From an uncultured bacterium (lineage in GTDB: Bacteria; Fidelibacterota; Marinisomatia; Marinisomatales; TCS56): 20,866 nt of DNA. Positions 3,046-10,114 of this stretch are shown piece by piece (within the stretch, counting starts at the first letter, position 1; each line of letters opens with the position of its first letter). Below the pieces are notes generated by a model that had not been told where the DNA came from, did not search any database, and saw only the letters and a program-made list of their open reading frames with translations. Location of the stretch: the NCBI GenBank assembly GCA_964539785.1, contig CAZIJQ010000042.1, positions 1 through 20,866 on the forward strand. The letters are read 5' to 3'. Position numbers and translations under genes: made by a program.

Positions 3046-3315
3046 TTATTTTAAAGCCACCTCATCCACCACCCCAACAATGATCGACCGGATTGGCCCC
3101 ATAGGGTCGTCCACTACCTGGCGGGCGGAATTGCCTTCGTCGATCACCAGCACCGTTTCACCAGCGCCGCTGTCGGTCCAATCTACCGCAATTAAATAAT
3201 CTCCGGTTGGTTTGCCGTTCAGTCCCAGTTTGTCTACCACCAGTAGCCGGCGGTTCTCATAAAATTTATGATTTATAGTAGAATGGATCGTTCCGCAGAC
3301 GCGCCCCAGAATCAT
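3046..3315 (-). CDS. BMC vertex protein (BMC-P, EutN/CcmL/PduN family)
   Basis: 89 aa with an MILGRVCGTIHST...GAGETVLVIDEGNSARQVV pattern typical of Pfam EutN_CcmL. 4-nt start/stop overlap with the upstream BMC-P gene. Confidence 0.85.
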   Translation of the reverse strand: MILGRVCGTIHSTINHKFYENRRLLVVDKLGLNGKPTGDYLIAVDWTDSGAGETVLVIDEGNSARQVVDDPMGPIRSIIVGVVDEVALK

Positions 3316-3596
3316 TGCTCCTCCCCATCGTAAAGCTGTACATCGTCAACGATGCCCACCACGGCATGATCCACCGGCACGAACCAGGGGTCCATGAGTA
3401 GAGCGGCCTCGCGGCTGCTTTCATAATACACCAGTTCGCCCGGTCCTGCCATGCGGGTGCTATCGGCAGCGATCACCGGTGATTTGACCGGCTGCTGGTA
3501 TTTATCCAGCGGTTGCATCACCAGCATGGGGACACCTTCCAGTCCGTCATAAACCACGGACGGGGTCAGTGTGCCGATAATTCGACCTAACTTCAT
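3312..3596 (-). CDS. BMC vertex protein (BMC-P, EutN/CcmL/PduN family)
   Basis: 94 aa, MKLGRIIGTLTPSVV...AGPGELVYYESSREAALL. 4-nt overlaps with both neighbouring genes, consistent with translational coupling. Confidence 0.85.
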   Translation of the reverse strand: MKLGRIIGTLTPSVVYDGLEGVPMLVMQPLDKYQQPVKSPVIAADSTRMAGPGELVYYESSREAALLMDPWFVPVDHAVVGIVDDVQLYDGEEQ

Positions 3597-4393
3597 TCGC
3601 CCTCCGATAGTTTATCAAGGTTGGCACGACCGAAATAAGTGGTAGCATCCACCTGGGCCGCCATCTCCGGATGCAGGTTGGGGATGATTGTCTCCCGCAG
3701 CCAATTCTCAGTGCTGGTACAGGCCTCTCGAGCAATTCGCACCGCCGCTTCCACTTCGTGCAGATCACCATTAAAAATCGTGAATGCCTTGCCACCGATA
3801 TCATCCGCCAGACGAATTTCAACAATATTGACTTCGGCTCCTTTAACGCCCGCATCGGCTGAACGAAGAGTAGCCGCCACGGTAAAGGTCTCACAAATAC
3901 CCAGTGCCCGCGGTTCACATTTGCGGCGCTGACCCAAGACAGAATCGTGAACCTGATCGTGAACCACCGGCAGGATTACCGAATCCACTACTTGAGTGCC
4001 TCCGACTTGCAATCCCTCAGCATAAGCCTCTTCCACAGCGCCGACGCTGCCGCCGATCAACACTAAATATTTACCGTTGTGCACCGTTCCCGATTTGATC
4101 ACTGCGATTGGCGCCCGCTTGATCATGGCATCGCCGCATAGAATACCAATAGTGACGCTGGAATACTCTATCAGGGCAATGGCCGGGTAGCGGGTGTCAG
4201 ATATCCTGGATCTGGGATCGGGAACTGTGGGCTGGGGATCAGGCTTTGAAGGTTGAGGCTCAATCTTTTCAACAAAATTTTCCAGTCCGTCGTCTTTAGC
4301 TGTTGGTTCTTCCAACACCATTGACTCAGAAGTCTTTTTCTGGGCCGCCTTTTGTCGTCGCAATTCTCCGGGGGTTGGTTTCTTTTCACTCAT
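3593..4393 (-). CDS. Tandem BMC-domain shell protein (BMC-T, PduT-like arrangement) with ~65-aa disordered K/P/E/Q-rich N-terminal extension
   Basis: Two canonical-order BMC domains (AIALIEYSSVTIGILCGDAMIKRAP... and ALGICETFTVAATLRSADAGVKGAEV...). They are preceded by MSEKKPTPGELRRQKAAQKK...PQPSKPDPQPTVPDP, a low-complexity segment. Confidence 0.8.
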   Translation of the reverse strand: MSEKKPTPGELRRQKAAQKKTSESMVLEEPTAKDDGLENFVEKIEPQPSKPDPQPTVPDPRSRISDTRYPAIALIEYSSVTIGILCGDAMIKRAPIAVIKSGTVHNGKYLVLIGGSVGAVEEAYAEGLQVGGTQVVDSVILPVVHDQVHDSVLGQRRKCEPRALGICETFTVAATLRSADAGVKGAEVNIVEIRLADDIGGKAFTIFNGDLHEVEAAVRIAREACTSTENWLRETIIPNLHPEMAAQVDATTYFGRANLDKLSEGE

Positions 4394-4420
4394 TACTAAT
4401 TACCCATTACTATTTACTAA

Positions 4421-5866
4421 TCAAACAATTCTGAAATGATCCACCAGAACGCAGCGCCGTTCCCGGGAAAAACTCAGGGGATTGGTGATGCCTTCGCCGG
4501 TGGGACTGGCAATCGAGAATGAACAGTAGCCTTCGCCTTCGTAACCCAGCCCAGCGAGAGATGGACCATTCTTGACAAAAACACTGCAGTTCATCACTCG
4601 CGCCATTCGACTCAGGTTATCCAGATTACGGGAATGCATCATGGCCGTGTGACCGAAACCGTGTTCCGCTTCCTTGGCCAGATCGATGGCCTGGTTGGCA
4701 TCAGGTACGATCACGAAGGGAATCACCGGCATCATCTGCTCGGTCCATACCAGGGGATGGTTGGCATCCACCGGTGCTATGGCCAGGCGGATGTGCTCAT
4801 CGACCTTAAGACCGATCTTCGCCAGAATTTCCTGAACGTTCTTCCCAATCATGTCCTTGTTCATAACCGCCGGTTGGCGGGGACCACGATTTTCGCTGAA
4901 AATCACCGATTCCAATTCCTTAACCTGGTGCTCTTTCAGCACATAGGCATCGTAGCGCAGCAAGGCCGATAAAAGTTGCGGGGCCACTGCTTCCACAACA
5001 ATAATTTCTTTTTCCAGGATGCAGATCAGGTTATTGTCCATGGAAGCACCCTTAACAATACTGCGGGCTGCCTTTTCAATATCGGCAGTCTCGTCCACCA
5101 CCACCGGGGGATTCCCCGGTCCGGCGCAGACGGCGCGCTTACCGCTGGTCATTGCGGCTTTCACCACCGCAGCGCCTCCAGTTACTACCAGCAGGCGCAC
5201 ACCGGGATGCTGCATCAATTCCTGGGCACTGGCGACGGTGGGTTGAGCGATGGTCGTTACCAGATTGGGTGGTCCGCCAGCGTCAACAATGGCGGCATTC
5301 AGCAATTCAACATTGTAAACCGAAACATTCTTGGCCGTGGGATGGACATTGAAAACTGCTGCATTCCCGGCTGCTACCATCCCAATTGTATTACAGATGA
5401 TAGTGGAAGTAGGGTTGGTGCAAGGCGTAATTGAACCGATCACCCCGTAGGGCGCCAACTCCATCAGCGTTAAACCATGATCACCGGTCTTGGCCCAAGG
5501 TTTGAGTATTTCGGTCCCCGGTGTTTTATCGATCACCAACCGGTTTTTTTCAATCTTGTCAGCTACCCGCCCCAGACCGGTTTCGTCATAGGCCCGTTGG
5601 GCCAGGTCTTCGCTGTGCTCGGTCATCACCCGTCGGATCGAGGCGATAATATCATCCCGCTTGGACAGAGACAGGGCATTTAACTGATCAAAGGCTTTAG
5701 CTGCCGCCGCCACTGCCAGATCGATGGTAGGGAAAATCCCCATTCCACCAGCGGCTACAGTGCTCCCGGATTGCTCCAGTACTCCCGATGCAACAGGTGT
5801 TTGGGTCACCCGCTTCACCAGCCGGGCGGCAATTTGCTCAACCTGTTCCTGGGTTAATTGTGCCAT
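4421..5866 (-). CDS. CoA-acylating aldehyde dehydrogenase (PduP/EutE family) with N-terminal encapsulation-peptide-like helix
   Basis: Aldehyde dehydrogenase fold with the catalytic Cys region NNLICILEKE. Preferred start is the ATG at 5866 (MAQLTQEQVEQIAARLVKRV...), which has AAAGGA 8 nt upstream. The ORF-track start at 5905 would lie inside a hairpin repeat. The N-terminal amphipathic helix plus G/S/T-rich linker is typical of BMC cargo. Confidence 0.85.
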   Translation of the reverse strand: MAQLTQEQVEQIAARLVKRVTQTPVASGVLEQSGSTVAAGGMGIFPTIDLAVAAAAKAFDQLNALSLSKRDDIIASIRRVMTEHSEDLAQRAYDETGLGRVADKIEKNRLVIDKTPGTEILKPWAKTGDHGLTLMELAPYGVIGSITPCTNPTSTIICNTIGMVAAGNAAVFNVHPTAKNVSVYNVELLNAAIVDAGGPPNLVTTIAQPTVASAQELMQHPGVRLLVVTGGAAVVKAAMTSGKRAVCAGPGNPPVVVDETADIEKAARSIVKGASMDNNLICILEKEIIVVEAVAPQLLSALLRYDAYVLKEHQVKELESVIFSENRGPRQPAVMNKDMIGKNVQEILAKIGLKVDEHIRLAIAPVDANHPLVWTEQMMPVIPFVIVPDANQAIDLAKEAEHGFGHTAMMHSRNLDNLSRMARVMNCSVFVKNGPSLAGLGYEGEGYCSFSIASPTGEGITNPLSFSRERRCVLVDHFRIV

Positions 5867-5913
5867 AATATGTCCTTTAGCCAGGGGATTAGTTACCGTG
5901 TACATCCAATCAT

Positions 5914-5981
5914 GTCACCCTGAGCCTGTCGAAGGGTGTCAACATGATTGATCAGCCATGCTTCGACGGGCTCAGCATGAC
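5914..5981. repeat. Inverted pair of 27-nt hairpin repeat units (REP/BIME-like) in the BMC-P/AldDH intergenic gap
   Basis: Unit A1 at 5914-5940 is gtcaccc-TGAGCCTGTCGAA-gggtgtc. Unit A2 at 5955-5981 has the opposite orientation (its reverse complement is gtcatgc-TGAGCCCGTCGAA-gcatggc). The 13-nt loop is conserved; the 7-bp stems differ but remain complementary. Confidence 0.75.
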
Positions 5982-5994
5982 AGACACGCGTCAA

Positions 5995-6294
5995 CTAATC
6001 GTTCACGCCTTTTTTGTAGCGGATTTTTCCGTCTACTTCCCAGTTGTCAACGATGGCCATAACCACAGCATCGCAGGGACGCTTGTCGGTCATTACCGTC
6101 TGCCGGGCGGAACTTCCGCTGGCATAGAGAACCATTTCACCCACTCCTGCCTGGACAGCATCAGCGGCGACAACAAAGCCGCCGCTGGGTTTACCATCCA
6201 TGTCAATATTCTGGAGCAGCAGAAATTTGAGGCCCTCCAAGCTCTGTTCTTTTTGTGTGGCTACCAGGGTACCCACTACTTGTGCCAGAACCAT
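5995..6294 (-). CDS. BMC vertex protein (BMC-P, EutN/CcmL/PduN family)
   Basis: 99 aa, [16 protein letters not shown]...[18 protein letters not shown]. Third BMC-P paralog in the locus. Confidence 0.85.
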
Positions 6295-6305
6295 ATTCCC
6301 GAGAC

Positions 6306-6614
6306 CTAATCCTCGGTCATTTTGGCTTTGGGCTTGTCACCGCGACCGATAGGCATTACCAGGTCCACATTACTGTGGGGACGGGCAATTACATGAACGG
6401 CAACGATTTCGCCTACGCGGGCGGCACCGGCTTTACCGGCATCGCAGGCAGCCTTTACAGCGGCCACATCACCGCGGACGATCGCTGAAACATAACCGCC
6501 ACCGGTCTTTTCATAAGATACTAGCTCGACTTTGGCCGCTTTGACCATGGCGTCGGCGGCTTCCACTACTGCCGGGAAACTGCGCGTTTCGATCATTCCA
6601 AGTGCTTCTGCCAT
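6306..6614 (-). CDS. BMC hexamer shell protein (BMC-H, PduA/EutM/CcmK-like)
   Basis: 102 aa. [56 protein letters not shown] is a near-consensus single BMC domain. It has a short Lys-rich C-terminal tail ([13 protein letters not shown]). Confidence 0.9.
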
Positions 6615-6667
6615 TTTACTTCCTCCAGTGTATTAAGAGTTAATTTGAAAATTCTTTTAAGATCAGT

Positions 6668-6722
6668 GTCATACTGAGCTTGTCGAAGTATGACCGTCAC
6701 CCTTCGACAGGCTCAGGGTAAC
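6668..6722. repeat. Inverted pair of the same 27-nt hairpin repeat units in the BMC-T/BMC-H intergenic gap
   Basis: B1 at 6668-6694 is gtcatac-TGAGCTTGTCGAA-gtatgac, a perfect 7-bp stem. B2 at 6696-6722 has the opposite orientation (reverse complement gttaccc-TGAGCCTGTCGAA-gggtgac). A gtatgac arm remnant lies at 6735-6741. Confidence 0.75.
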
Positions 6723-6746
6723 AGAAGGGCTCCAGTATGACACAAA

Positions 6747-7373
6747 TTATTTTTTATCTTTCTCAACCCCGGTGATTTCTTCAATGCATTTTACGGCGGC
6801 GCGCCAGCCTACATCAATATCCCTTTCGGCTCCGCCCAGATACACACGGCCGAAGCTGCCGAAAGTTCGTACTTCCAAAATATTGATTTCGGCAGCTTTT
6901 TCCGCTTCATTGGCCGCCAAGGCGGCATAAGCAGCGGGCTGGACCTCCATAACGAACATGGTTTCGCCGGGAACAATCATATTACCGTGGCGCATGCGGT
7001 TAATCAACTGGGTCTGGTGATCATCGATGTGGCGAATCACCTGCTGAGAATAAATTTTTGGCTTCCAACGCTTCTCCTCCTTCAAATCCAACGCATCCAG
7101 AATAGCCTGTCCAGCCTGGCGCACATCGGCCTGGGATTCGGAATGAATTTCCAGCATTCCGAACAACCGTTCCACGATCTGCATCCCTGGAGTAACATTA
7201 GTAGATTTCAAGGCGATGTCGGTGATCCGGTTGATTTCGATCCCTGGGGAAATTTCAACATACAATGAAGCCATCCCGGCGATTGGTAAAAAACCCTTAG
7301 CCACTGTGCCGAGAAAGGCGGCGTACTGGGGTTGAAGATTATCCAGAAAACAATAAGCGCGTAAATCGACCAC
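6747..7373 (-). CDS. Tandem BMC-domain shell protein (BMC-T, PduT-like)
   Basis: 208 aa. Two BMC-like halves: [24 protein letters not shown]... and [29 protein letters not shown].... Domain order appears canonical (non-permuted). Assignment rests on the motif pattern only. Confidence 0.7.
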
Positions 7374-7390
7374 TATTCTACTCCTTCAGC

Positions 7391-8800
7391 TTAATTCGAA
7401 ATTGTTGTTTCTTGGGCACCTTTAACGATCCCAATACTGGCGCTGGCACCAATCCGGGTAGCCCCGGCTTCAACCATCTTGCGGGCATCGTCATACGATC
7501 TGATACCACCGGCGGCTTTCACGCCCAATCCCGCTCCTTGGACAACCCGGCTCATGAGAGCCACATCTTCGGCAGTAGCACCACCAGGACCAAAACCGGT
7601 GGACGTTTTAACATAATTAGCGCGAGCTTTTTTTGACAGCTCGCAAGCCCTAACTTTTTCGTCGTCGGTTAACAAAGCTGCTTCGATAATAACTTTACTG
7701 GTGGCGCTGCCGTCTTCGCAGGCCTCACAGACTGATCGGATATCCCGGTAAACTAAGTCATCTTTGCCACTTTTCAGAGCGCCGATATTGATCACCATAT
7801 CGATTTCTTTCGCACCATCGCGGATCGCCTGGCGGGTCTCCATGGCCTTGATCTCCGGTGAATGGGCTCCGGAAGGAAAGCCCACCACGGTGCAGACTTT
7901 CACATCGGAACCGTCCAGTTCTTTGGCTGCTAGCCTCACATAACTGGGACTAATACATACCGTGGCAAAATGGAAGTCCCGAGCTTCACCACAAAGCTTT
8001 TTGATATCGGCATCGGTGGCATCGGGCTTCAAAACGGTGTGATCAATGCAACGGGCAATATCCTCCGGAACGTTTTCGCAGCCGGTACCGTTGTGGTAGC
8101 CGACCCGCTCCACACCAAAATCCATGAATTTGCGTACGGCATCGGGCTGTTGGACCATCTGCTTGCCGCGGATATAATCGGCTTCCAGCGGCTGGGGTAC
8201 GCCAGTGGGCGACAGGGTGATTCCAGCTTTTGCCAAGATTTTCTCGACTTCATCGGTGATTCGTACCAGATCCGATTCGGAGATTCCGGTTTCAACAACC
8301 GAGACCGGTGGTGCCGATTGCGGCGCTGAAAATTCGATGTCAGGTTGCTGTTCGATATCAGTAATCATTTGTACCCGTCGCAAATGCCGCTCGGCGGTAC
8401 ATTCACTGGTAATAAAAGTTTCCACAATTTGTTGCGCCAGTGCGGCACCAATCAGTCCGGCACCCAGTGTCAGAACCCGGGCATCGTTGTGTTCGCGGGC
8501 GTTTTTGGCGGTTGATACATCATAGCACAGAGCTGCCCGAATGCCCAACACCTTGTTGGCGGTCATGGCGGAACCAATTCCGGCCCCATCTACCATTACA
8601 CCAAAATCGGCCTCACCAGCAGCGACTTTGCGGGCTACGGCCAGGGCGAACTCGGGATAATCCACAGCAGCGGTGCCATCGGTGCCACAGTCAATTATCG
8701 TACTACCACAACCGGAAAGAAATTCTTTCAATTGGTTTTTCAAGCCATATCCACCGTGATCGGCGCCAATGGCTATTTTCAAGTTTTTTATGTCTTTCAT
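7391..8800 (-). CDS. Fusion protein: RpiB/LacAB-family sugar-phosphate isomerase (aa 1-150) + deoxyribose-phosphate aldolase DeoC/DERA (aa ~230-469)
   Basis: N-terminal [14 protein letters not shown]...[30 protein letters not shown] aligns residue-by-residue with E. coli RpiB. C-terminal [13 protein letters not shown] and the Schiff-base lysine motif [14 protein letters not shown] are DERA signatures. The two are joined by a Pro-rich linker containing an amphipathic helix. Confidence 0.85.
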
Positions 8801-8825
8801 GATATTTTCAAATTTTAGTTAGCCA

Positions 8826-9773
8826 TTAACCATTTAACAGCAATTTATTCGCGACAAATTCATCCGTAATAAGCGTATTGAAAAATTTACCCTGTAGTCC
8901 GGCGCGGATTGCTGCCAGCTTACGCTGACCACCAGCCACCGCGATTGATCGGGATTTTTTAGCCAGCTCTGTCAGATCTATTCCGATTGTACGCCGGTCC
9001 AGATCGGAAGAACAAATTTTCCCTTTACCATCGATAATCCGTGAACAAATATCGCCCACAGCCCCCCGTTTCAGCAAATCATTAACTTCATTATTTTCAA
9101 AATAATCTGCCCGTACCAGGACTGAATCCATGCCGAAAGAGCCAATGGTGAAAAAGGCTACCTGGGCCGAGCGGGCCAATTGTAGCGTTCGAGCAATATT
9201 TTTATCGGATACAATCGCTGCCTTAACTGCCGGGCTGTCAACGATGGCGGGTAATGGCAGCAGATAAGGAATGGCCCCGCATTTCTCACCAATGGTCTTG
9301 GCTATTTCACTGGCGTGGGTGTCATATTCGGCCCGTGATATACCGCCGTTCAGCTGTACTACCGTCATGTCCTTAAATTTTTTAGCCTGCACCTGGCCTG
9401 CCAAAGCCTGCATGGTGGTACCCCAGGATACACCAAGGGTCAGGCCATCTTCCAGCAGGTCATTCAGCAGTGATACCGCTGCCTGTCCCAGACGGCGCTG
9501 TACCAACCAGTAGTTACCGTCATCCGGAACGACAATGACTTGCTTGAGCTTGTATTTTTTTTGCAGCTGTGCTTCCAGACGCGTACCGGCAGCTTGGGGA
9601 TCTTTGATTTTTATACTGACAATGCCCTGCTGGCGGGCCGCCTGGAGCAGTCGCGAGACGCCGGGTCGGGAGACTGACATTTTGCGGGCAATATCCTGTT
9701 GGCTGAGCCCATGTTCATAATACAGCCGGGCAGCCTCCACCAACTGGGAAATTCGTTCTGAGTCAGTCAACAT
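8826..9773 (-). CDS. SorC/DeoR(Bacillus-type)/CggR family sugar-phosphate-responsive transcriptional regulator
   Basis: 315 aa. N-terminal HTH (LYYEHGLSQQDIARKMSVSRPGVSRLLQAARQQGIV) is followed by a SorC-type sugar-binding domain. It is the first gene of the BMC operon, 25 nt upstream of the RpiB-DERA gene. Confidence 0.85.
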   Translation of the reverse strand: MLTDSERISQLVEAARLYYEHGLSQQDIARKMSVSRPGVSRLLQAARQQGIVSIKIKDPQAAGTRLEAQLQKKYKLKQVIVVPDDGNYWLVQRRLGQAAVSLLNDLLEDGLTLGVSWGTTMQALAGQVQAKKFKDMTVVQLNGGISRAEYDTHASEIAKTIGEKCGAIPYLLPLPAIVDSPAVKAAIVSDKNIARTLQLARSAQVAFFTIGSFGMDSVLVRADYFENNEVNDLLKRGAVGDICSRIIDGKGKICSSDLDRRTIGIDLTELAKKSRSIAVAGGQRKLAAIRAGLQGKFFNTLITDEFVANKLLLNG

Positions 9774-9895: not shown

Positions 9896-9922
9896 GGCAT
9901 GGTTCGACAGGCTCACTATGAC
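9896..9922. repeat. Single copy of the same hairpin repeat unit in the leader region upstream of the SorC/DeoR gene
   Basis: ggcatgg-TTCGACAGGCTCA-ctatgac. Its reverse complement is gtcatag-TGAGCCTGTCGAA-ccatgcc. Same loop as the other copies; the stem has 5 Watson-Crick pairs plus 1 G-U. Confidence 0.65.
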
Positions 9923-10114
9923 ATCTCCCCTGTCATTCCGAAGGAAGGCATGCCTGCCGTAGATCCTGATTTATCAGGACGCAGGCAGGTACGACTGAGT
10001 AATCTACTTTGTCTGGAGTAAGTTCATTGTAGATTTCTCATCCCGATGTATCGGTATTCGAAATGACAAATATGGAAACTGTTAAAACGGTTAACGTGTA
10101 TTTACCGATGGTTA

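Follow-up and report, generated by a model that had tools for sequence, protein, structure and literature searches.

Five short palindromic repeats lie between the genes of a 20,866-nt contig from an uncultured member of Candidatus Marinimicrobia (CAZIJQ010000042.1, assembly GCA_964539785.1; the whole stretch is referred to here as the window), four of them inside an operon for a sugar-phosphate-type bacterial microcompartment (BMC). We propose, at a probability of roughly 70%, that these units belong to the CGTC-tagged superfamily of repetitive extragenic palindromes (REPs) and are equivalent to the Ssn-related motifs (SRM), that is, hairpin targets of small Ssn nucleases that reside as passengers in permissive gaps. 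Their family membership rests on the anatomy of the unit, its covariation, its phyletic distribution and turnover, and the association of the window's own type of unit with GIY-YIG nuclease genes in other organisms. The repeats are therefore presented as a known kind of element in a variant form, carrying a tandem G·A platform in the stem, and not as a new system; the association between Ssn and SRM has already been published (PMC11893778). A preliminary description of this DNA had offered, as its fallback, a genome-wide mobile family that has landed in permissive gaps, and this comes closest to the evidence.

The core sequence TGAGCYYGTCGAA is present in five exact copies, at 5921(+), 5962(-), 6675(+), 6703(-) and 9903(-); dinucleotide shuffles of the window, searched with up to two mismatches, hold a mean of 1.3 matches and reach five or more in 0 of 100 cases. 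The count is thus far above chance, and all five units lie between called genes at the positions first assigned to them. Unit A1 (5913 to 5940, plus strand) consists of the tag TGTC, the stem ACCC, the segment TGAG-CCTGT-CGAA and the arm GGGTG, and it faces unit A2 (5955 to 5982, minus strand; read on that strand as TGTC-ATGC-TGAG-CCCGT-CGAA-GCATGGC) in an inverted dimer spanning 5913 to 5982, tags outermost and 14 nt between the two units. A second inverted dimer joins unit A3 (6667 to 6694, plus strand; TGTC-ATAC-TGAG-CTTGT-CGAA-GTATGAC) to unit A4 (6696 to 6723, minus strand; TGTT-ACCC-TGAG-CCTGT-CGAA-GGGTGAC), only 1 nt apart, such that four of the five units occur in inverted dimers. Beside A4 lies a truncated or decayed sixth unit (6724 to 6742, minus strand, TGTCATAC-TGGAGCCCTTC) that keeps only the tag and the 5' arm, and whose partner in the predicted fold is the 5' arm of A3. 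Unit A5 (9896 to 9923, minus strand; TGTC-ATAG-TGAG-CCTGT-CGAA-CCATGCC) stands singly, has an inverted closing pair (G..C) and gives no stable fold alone (z = +0.3). It adjoins a 138-nt inverted dimer of a sister family, here called family B (9931 to 10068; TGTCATTC...GAATC type, GTCATTC...GAATC), which has long structured apices and terminates on both sides in TGTCAT/ATGACA. The tag is TGTC in four of the five window units of family A and TGTT in the other. The 7-nt arms have the sequences originally listed for them, but they do not pair perfectly throughout: pairing is 7/7 at 5955-5981 and 6696-6722 (each with one G-T) and at 6668-6694, 6/7 at 5914-5940, and 5/7 at 9896-9922. Both inverted pairs fold into long hairpins, whichever strand is taken and whether as RNA or as DNA (z = -4.1 to -6.3), as had been suggested for the paired units, and no terminator-like site (a GC-rich hairpin followed by a U-tract) was found to coincide with any unit.

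The anatomy of the unit was examined in 158 units recovered from a genome scan in which the 3' arm was left free. The three base pairs beside the core are paired in 95-97% of these units and make use of all four Watson-Crick types (at the N position, C-G in 97, G-C in 26, A-T in 16 and T-A in 8), so the compensatory stem changes noticed in the window recur in independent copies. The four GTCA bases are paired in only 48-58%, and they therefore constitute a conserved 5' tag with no obligatory stem. The preliminary description had placed a 13-nt loop between the arms, and three observations speak against this. The first and last bases of that stretch covary (T..A in 152, C..G in 7, other combinations in 0). 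Long forms of the unit from three related operons (designated L126, L130 and L254) carry a structured insertion of 25-30 nt located exactly within the central five bases, leaving UGAG and CGAA intact. Family B keeps GTCATTC-UGAG...CGAA-GAATC around apices of 4-26 nt, with a further stem in place of the central five bases; its commonest apex is C-G-N-A-G, which together with its neighbours makes GCGNAGC. Lastly, among the viral contigs of IMG/VR the natural G·A form is present in 79 stretches and a perfectly paired CTCAG version of equal information content in 0, the sister form with a perfect stem, GTCAYNCTGAGCYTGTCTCAG (CTCAG replacing CGAAG), having no match in that collection. On the basis of the end-base covariation, the insertion sites, the sister families and the counts of natural and perfect-stem forms, the 13-nt loop is probably not a loop, and the unit would be built from a tag (T/C)GTCA, a covarying stem of 3-4 bp, a U-A pair, a tandem G·A/A·G, a G-C pair and a 5-nt apex CYYGU. 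Sheared G·A pairs are known to be stable, and the platform is proposed here from homology and motif chemistry rather than from an energy model.

The long-form units themselves lie at 6283-6338 of L126, 9080-9135 of L130 and approximately 5118-5170 of L254, with a hairpin-forming insert (GCCTGCC...) inside the 5-nt apex; the stems of this insert differ between loci yet stay complementary (CCAATC/GATTGG in L126, CCTAGTC/GACTGG in L130). Likenesses of the unit to three other motifs were set aside. A hammerhead ribozyme, whose minimal core CUGAGUCCGCAGGACGAAG resembles, was rejected with three core bases missing and no Rfam ribozyme match, a K-turn was rejected because there is no 3-nt bulge, and likenesses to the tRNA T-loop/D-stem and to tmRNA (UUCGACGGG) were judged to be chance.

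The 20-nt pattern GTCAYNCTGAGCYYGTCGAA, searched with the 3' arm free, gives at least 120 matches in species-representative genomes from more than 12 phyla, against a chance expectation that by our own arithmetic is about 35 for the whole genome collection. Among the matches listed are Bacteroidota, Eremiobacterota/Vulcanimicrobiota (where copies are very dense), Nitrospirota, Verrucomicrobiota, Ignavibacteria, Calditrichota, Zixibacteria, Chloroflexota, two lineages of the candidate phyla radiation, Acidobacteriota, Armatimonadota, Spirochaetota and Proteobacteria, and a BLAST search of plasmids adds intergenic copies in Moraxella, Sphingobium, Novosphingobium, Comamonas, Sinorhizobium and Hymenobacter. 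Most of the IMG/VR matches listed for the 15-mer core have complementary bases directly beside it. The dispersed family of REP-like hairpins anticipated by the preliminary description is thereby supported, as are the inverted dimers and extragenic placement, which extend from the window to other genomes. Neighbouring units are inverted in 60 cases and direct in 40, at variable spacing (+- 36, -+ 24, ++ 22, -- 18), and 60% of units fall outside crude open reading frame (ORF) calls even though those ORFs cover 87% of the DNA. The gaps that hold units lie between co-directional genes in 110 cases, convergent genes in 47 and divergent genes in 23, compared with 395, 104 and 103 in the background.

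Many of the IMG/VR contigs with the core (loci L008, L015, L028, L082, L085, L098 and others) carry related head-tail clusters, with genes for portal, capsid and a BR0599-type baseplate protein and with units between the genes; judged from the gene set, these contigs may be akin to gene transfer agents. The 38-kb contig IMGVR_UViG_3300025154_000037 (L303, L305, L319 and others) holds at least 12 exact units in several stretches, which is unusually dense for a putative virus, and may be host DNA.

An indication of the kind of enzyme involved comes from the genes beside the units. Clustering of the ORFs at 120 genome loci and 120 viral loci yielded no Y1 transposase among the recurrent neighbours; the main clusters were response regulators, short-chain dehydrogenases and phage or gene transfer agent-like structural genes, and a small cluster present in 3 loci was GIY-YIG. 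These GIY-YIG ORFs come from three phyla (Turneriella, an Eremiobacterota metagenome-assembled genome and Lutibacter), measure 94-126 aa, are single-domain, with an assignment at the level of Pfam GIY-YIG, and are tightly bracketed by inverted arrays of units. In the Turneriella metagenome-assembled genome (L194), tandem arrays of alternating units with a period of about 74 nt and the canonical CGTC tag occupy both sides of the gene, at 6390-6720 and 7095-7200. A metagenome scan seeded with the three GIY-YIG proteins only returned 80 loci, in 44 of which a G·A-platform unit lies within 250 nt of the GIY-YIG gene; units are found on both sides in 26 of 76. The tags point outward around the gene (upstream, + 44 vs - 20; downstream, - 30 vs + 18). 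Based on crude ORF calls, 50 of the 120 gaps that adjoin a GIY-YIG gene contain a unit (42%), compared with 3 of the 79 other gaps in the same loci (4%; odds ratio 18, p = 2.7e-10). The subtype of the unit is usually identical on the two sides of a given gene and different between loci, and at three of the loci (L447, L499 and L524) the units are of the window's own type. Close homologs of the L447 nuclease are mostly encoded on contigs of only 0.5-3 kb, as might be expected of a multi-copy, repeat-flanked gene at which metagenome assemblies break.

These features can be set against two published systems. For the first, a survey by Di Nocera, De Gregorio and Rocco (2013, BMC Genomics 14:522; PMC3733652) divides REPs into GTAG-tagged and CGTC-tagged superfamilies and describes the latter as having a tag that is often TGTC (or CCTC), a stem of 8-9 bp starting from A-T, a loop of 4-5 nt and a 3-nt unpaired tail CCA. 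According to the same survey, CGTC-tagged REPs are mostly inverted dimers, are intergenic, occur in five phyla, are not flanked by tyrosine transposase genes and have "no dedicated transposase". The window family agrees with this account in its unpaired tag at one end, which is often TGTC and in the Turneriella units of the same family is CGTC; in a stem that begins with A-T or A-C; and in its inverted dimers, intergenic placement mainly between co-directional or convergent genes, spread over many phyla and lack of a transposase association. The nearest class, likened by its format description only, is CGTC-2 (8-bp stem, 5-nt loop), and the window units reach this format, as A-Y-N-C-U-[G·A]-[A·G]-G with a 5-nt apex, only when the tandem G·A is taken as part of an eight-position stem; ViennaRNA assigns an 11-nt loop. 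The window apex CTTGT also resembles CTTGA loops that we decoded from the survey's CGTC-3 and CGTC-4 peptides. The window family differs in having two fixed non-Watson-Crick stem positions (UGAG opposite CGAA) and in having no CCA tail. The peptides that the family could encode (LSLSK, PELVEG, FDKLR) are absent from the supplement of the survey, whose pipeline dropped palindromes with more than one mismatch.

The second system is the Ssn family of GIY-YIG nucleases of about 94 aa (cd10448), described by Chenal et al. (2025, Nat Commun 16:2388; PMC11893778). The SsnA enzyme of N. meningitidis binds the NTS repeat (CGTCATTCCCGCGMAVGCGGGAATCYRG, which is dRS3 and CGTC-1) only as single-stranded DNA (ssDNA) and on one strand only, and cuts upstream of it; homologs of ssnA have SRM nearby in 71% of cases and on both sides in 42%. 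Strand-specific cleavage of ssDNA has been demonstrated only for the Neisseria and Wolbachia enzymes, on motifs with perfect stems (PMC11893778). Our units share with NTS/dRS3 and SRM an oriented hairpin with a conserved upstream (C/T)GTCA that reaches hundreds of intergenic copies in some genomes, and inverted copies on either side of a single-domain GIY-YIG gene of about 94 aa, where the 42% of adjacent gaps occupied here may be set beside the 42% of homologs flanked on both sides in that study. They differ in carrying the G·A platform. The sole Rfam model that matches the window repeats is RF02901 (AaHKsRNA41, Aggregatibacter 'sRNA 41'), whose consensus GCUGAgCUUGcCGAAGC ... gUUCGgCAAGcUCAgC is an inverted dimer with the same platform and apex. 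The matches (24.8, 21.1 and 19.9 bits; positions 5907-6027 and 6661-6778 of the window) are far below the gathering threshold of 97; no Rfam family matches at gathering thresholds, and the long forms match no family. RF02901 includes flanks specific to Aggregatibacter and is annotated as an sRNA gene rather than a repeat, yet the sequence behind the model appears to be an inverted dimer of repeats of this type and not a dedicated sRNA gene. Literature searches by motif sequence and by ghost peptides (LSLSK, PELVEG, FDKLR, LRQAQ) retrieved nothing relevant.

Several points count against assigning the window units to the Ssn targets, and we acknowledge them together. The published SRM string, HGTCWYN(0-2)YYVSBRHN(0-5)WNVSBRGN(0-2)RNCYNB, matches 0 of the 5 units and nothing else in the window although it does match the NTS control, a failure that we attribute to the G·A platform. 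ViennaRNA gives no such platform, leaving the loop of 11 nt, and the 158 units share no consensus beyond the 3' arm, hence no CCA tail (the tails in the window are TCA, GCT, ACC and ACG). A tblastn search of the window and of about 150 kb of contigs from related Marinimicrobia recovered no GIY-YIG gene, and the named proteins that a protein search placed close to the L447 nuclease included none from Marinimicrobia, the nearest named ones being from Ignavibacteriales. The crudeness of the ORF calls behind the gap comparison must be added to this list. Finally, the role demonstrated for Ssn in Neisseria is the restriction of transforming ssDNA and not the mobilization of repeats.

If the units are Ssn targets, a plausible scheme is one in which short oriented DNA hairpins spread through intergenic DNA. 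By analogy with Neisseria SsnA and NTS, the tagged strand would become single-stranded during replication, transformation or repair, at which point a small single-domain GIY-YIG nuclease would bind it and cleave it directly upstream of the tag. Repeat-nuclease-repeat units would in this respect resemble REPtrons, and the repeats located away from the nuclease gene, usually tag-outward inverted dimers, would be their non-autonomous progeny. By the same analogy, the window units may be cut and mobilized by a cognate Ssn in the Marinimicrobia host. In the operon the repeats would be passengers that are co-transcribed and form strong RNA hairpins, which need not be under selection.

The passenger interpretation draws on seven related operons (dehydrogenase identity 81-95%) that were compared with the window gap by gap, giving eight operons in all. 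The gap between the BMC-T and BMC-H genes, which holds A3 and A4 in the window, is 37 nt without a repeat in L128, has no unit in L255 and has one decayed unit in L252; in L126 and L254 it contains a dimer with one long-form member, and in L130 a single long form. The gap between the BMC-P and dehydrogenase genes carries a palindromic REP-type element in all eight operons and folds at z <= -3.5 in five of them. The identity of the element varies: the window, L255 and L130 have family A (inverted in L130, with a compensatory A-T to G-C change in the extended stem), L254 has a decayed form of family A, and L253 (95% identity), L252, L126 and L128 have family B; the decayed copies of L254 and L128 fold at z -0.6 and -1.8. 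The family A dimer of the window and the family B dimer of L126 have the same right flank, ...TGACA/(tg)ATTGGATG, and a similar left flank, GCGT/TGTCAT (the slash marks the edge of the element), and therefore whole tag-to-tag cassettes have been exchanged in place. Upstream of the regulator gene the window has a gap of 505 nt, whereas the relatives have gaps of 128-262 nt from which A5 and the family B dimer are both missing. The empty sites, the decayed copies and the cassette swaps at identical boundaries demonstrate a turnover that is rapid in evolutionary terms, so that the repeats are not fixed parts of the operon. In L126 (10384-11887) and L130 (13422-14919) a HipA/HipB-type toxin-antitoxin module, not present in the window, sits just downstream of the BMC operon and is another sign of a plastic neighbourhood.

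The same comparison bears on the alternative that selection maintains the hairpins as RNA elements of the BMC operon, in which they would block 3' exonucleases or recruit RNase III and so set the half-lives of the shell segment (BMC-H/BMC-P) relative to the downstream enzyme segment. That REPs elsewhere stabilize upstream mRNA is established and is discussed in PMC3733652. Both dimers of the window lie inside the operon, and strong folds are predicted for their sense RNA (-41 and -35 kcal/mol; z = -4.1 and -4.7, respectively). A conserved role in mRNA decay is nevertheless weakened by the close relatives, in which the site between BMC-T and BMC-H can be empty, copies decay, and family, orientation and sequence change at a single site. 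Moreover, single units across genomes show no preference for the sense over the antisense strand of transcription (24 vs 19), and U-tract terminators are lacking. Because of the strong sense-strand hairpins and the one gap that is always occupied, we regard this alternative as doubtful but deserving of some weight.

Somewhat less probable, in our estimation, is that the G·A-platform units make up a distinct, uncatalogued class of SRM with its own clade of GIY-YIG enzymes, in which the enzyme would read tag, platform and apex and the cassette swaps would reflect cut-and-paste by Ssn on ssDNA. Direct reading of these three elements by the enzyme would account for the conservation of a 20-nt pattern in more than 12 phyla.

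We consider it very unlikely that the repeats are miniature inverted-repeat transposable elements, deletion derivatives of insertion sequences with terminal inverted repeats and target-site duplications that would be moved by a DDE transposase. The dimers do resemble 26-nt terminal inverted repeats around a short spacer, and their occupancy does vary between relatives, but units are also found singly, in tandem and tail-to-tail at the variable spacings given above, no target-site duplication is seen when filled sites are compared with empty or swapped ones, and no transposase recurs nearby. Least credible of all is the link drawn in the preliminary description to classical GTAG-type REPs, or bacterial interspersed mosaic elements, mobilized by a REP-associated tyrosine transposase (RAYT, a Y1 HUH transposase), which is invited by the short palindromes, the conserved unpaired leader, the inverted dimers and the extragenic placement but conflicts with a leader of TGTC/CGTC instead of GTAG/GTGG, with the absence of a Y1 transposase from the recurrent neighbours in ~240 loci, where the bracketing gene is a small GIY-YIG nuclease, with the lack of flanking tyrosine transposase genes noted for CGTC repeats in PMC3733652, and with the absence of GTCGAAG and CTTCGAC from the supplementary files searched for a TnpA-REP survey, in which the few CTGAGC/TGTCAT matches listed lie in unrelated REPs. 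The two kinds of system are alike in outline, in that GTAG REPs, REPINs and mosaic elements with RAYT (TnpA-REP) also involve recognition of a tagged ssDNA hairpin, repeats arranged as inverted doublets, and a single-copy gene for a nuclease that has its own repeats on both sides; they differ from the units described here in the tag, in the fold of the nuclease (HUH-Y1 as opposed to GIY-YIG) and in being species-specific rather than conserved in sequence across phyla.

The operon that hosts the repeats is a complete minus-strand microcompartment locus (3046-9773) comprising a SorC regulator, an RpiB-DeoC fusion, BMC-T, BMC-H, BMC-P, an acylating aldehyde dehydrogenase, a second BMC-T (tandem-BMC protein) and two further BMC-P genes. 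The BMC-P (5995-6294) and BMC-H (6306-6614) genes, both on the minus strand, lie between the two dimers; a BMC-T gene of the CsoS1D_N type (6747 to 7373, minus strand) is upstream of dimer A3/A4, and the aldehyde dehydrogenase gene (4421 to 5866, minus strand) is downstream of dimer A1/A2. The dehydrogenase ORF was listed as 4421-5905, which would encode 494 aa, though its homologs are 481-484 aa long and cover 97% of the ORF, and for this reason its start is probably the ATG at 5866 and not 5905. An AAGGA ribosome-binding site is located upstream of that ATG, and with this start the first pair of units (A1/A2) is about 47 nt upstream of the start codon. In L126, L130, L254, L255 and L252, a second inverted repeat, AAACCAC ... 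GTGGTTT around GTGAAATCTGTG, is conserved between the repeats and the ribosome-binding site of BMC-H. Neither the window nor L128 has this element, which may have a regulatory function.

For the window itself the repeats appear to be of little importance, as the BMC operon works without them in relatives. Their wider relevance lies with the Ssn nucleases. As the SRM string misses a very common class of repeat, the copy numbers and phyletic range of the Ssn system are probably underestimated. Since the tandem G·A platform is fixed while the apex varies freely, the unit also predicts which features a subset of Ssn nucleases recognizes, and this bears on their proposed use as programmable ssDNA cutters, and the identical-boundary cassette swaps in close relatives offer a natural test bed for whether Ssn mobilizes its repeats. 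Should the G·A-platform units prove to be a distinct class that its own enzymes cut and paste, Ssn would be more than a restriction factor for transforming DNA; it would be a true mobilizing enzyme, a GIY-YIG 'REPtron'.

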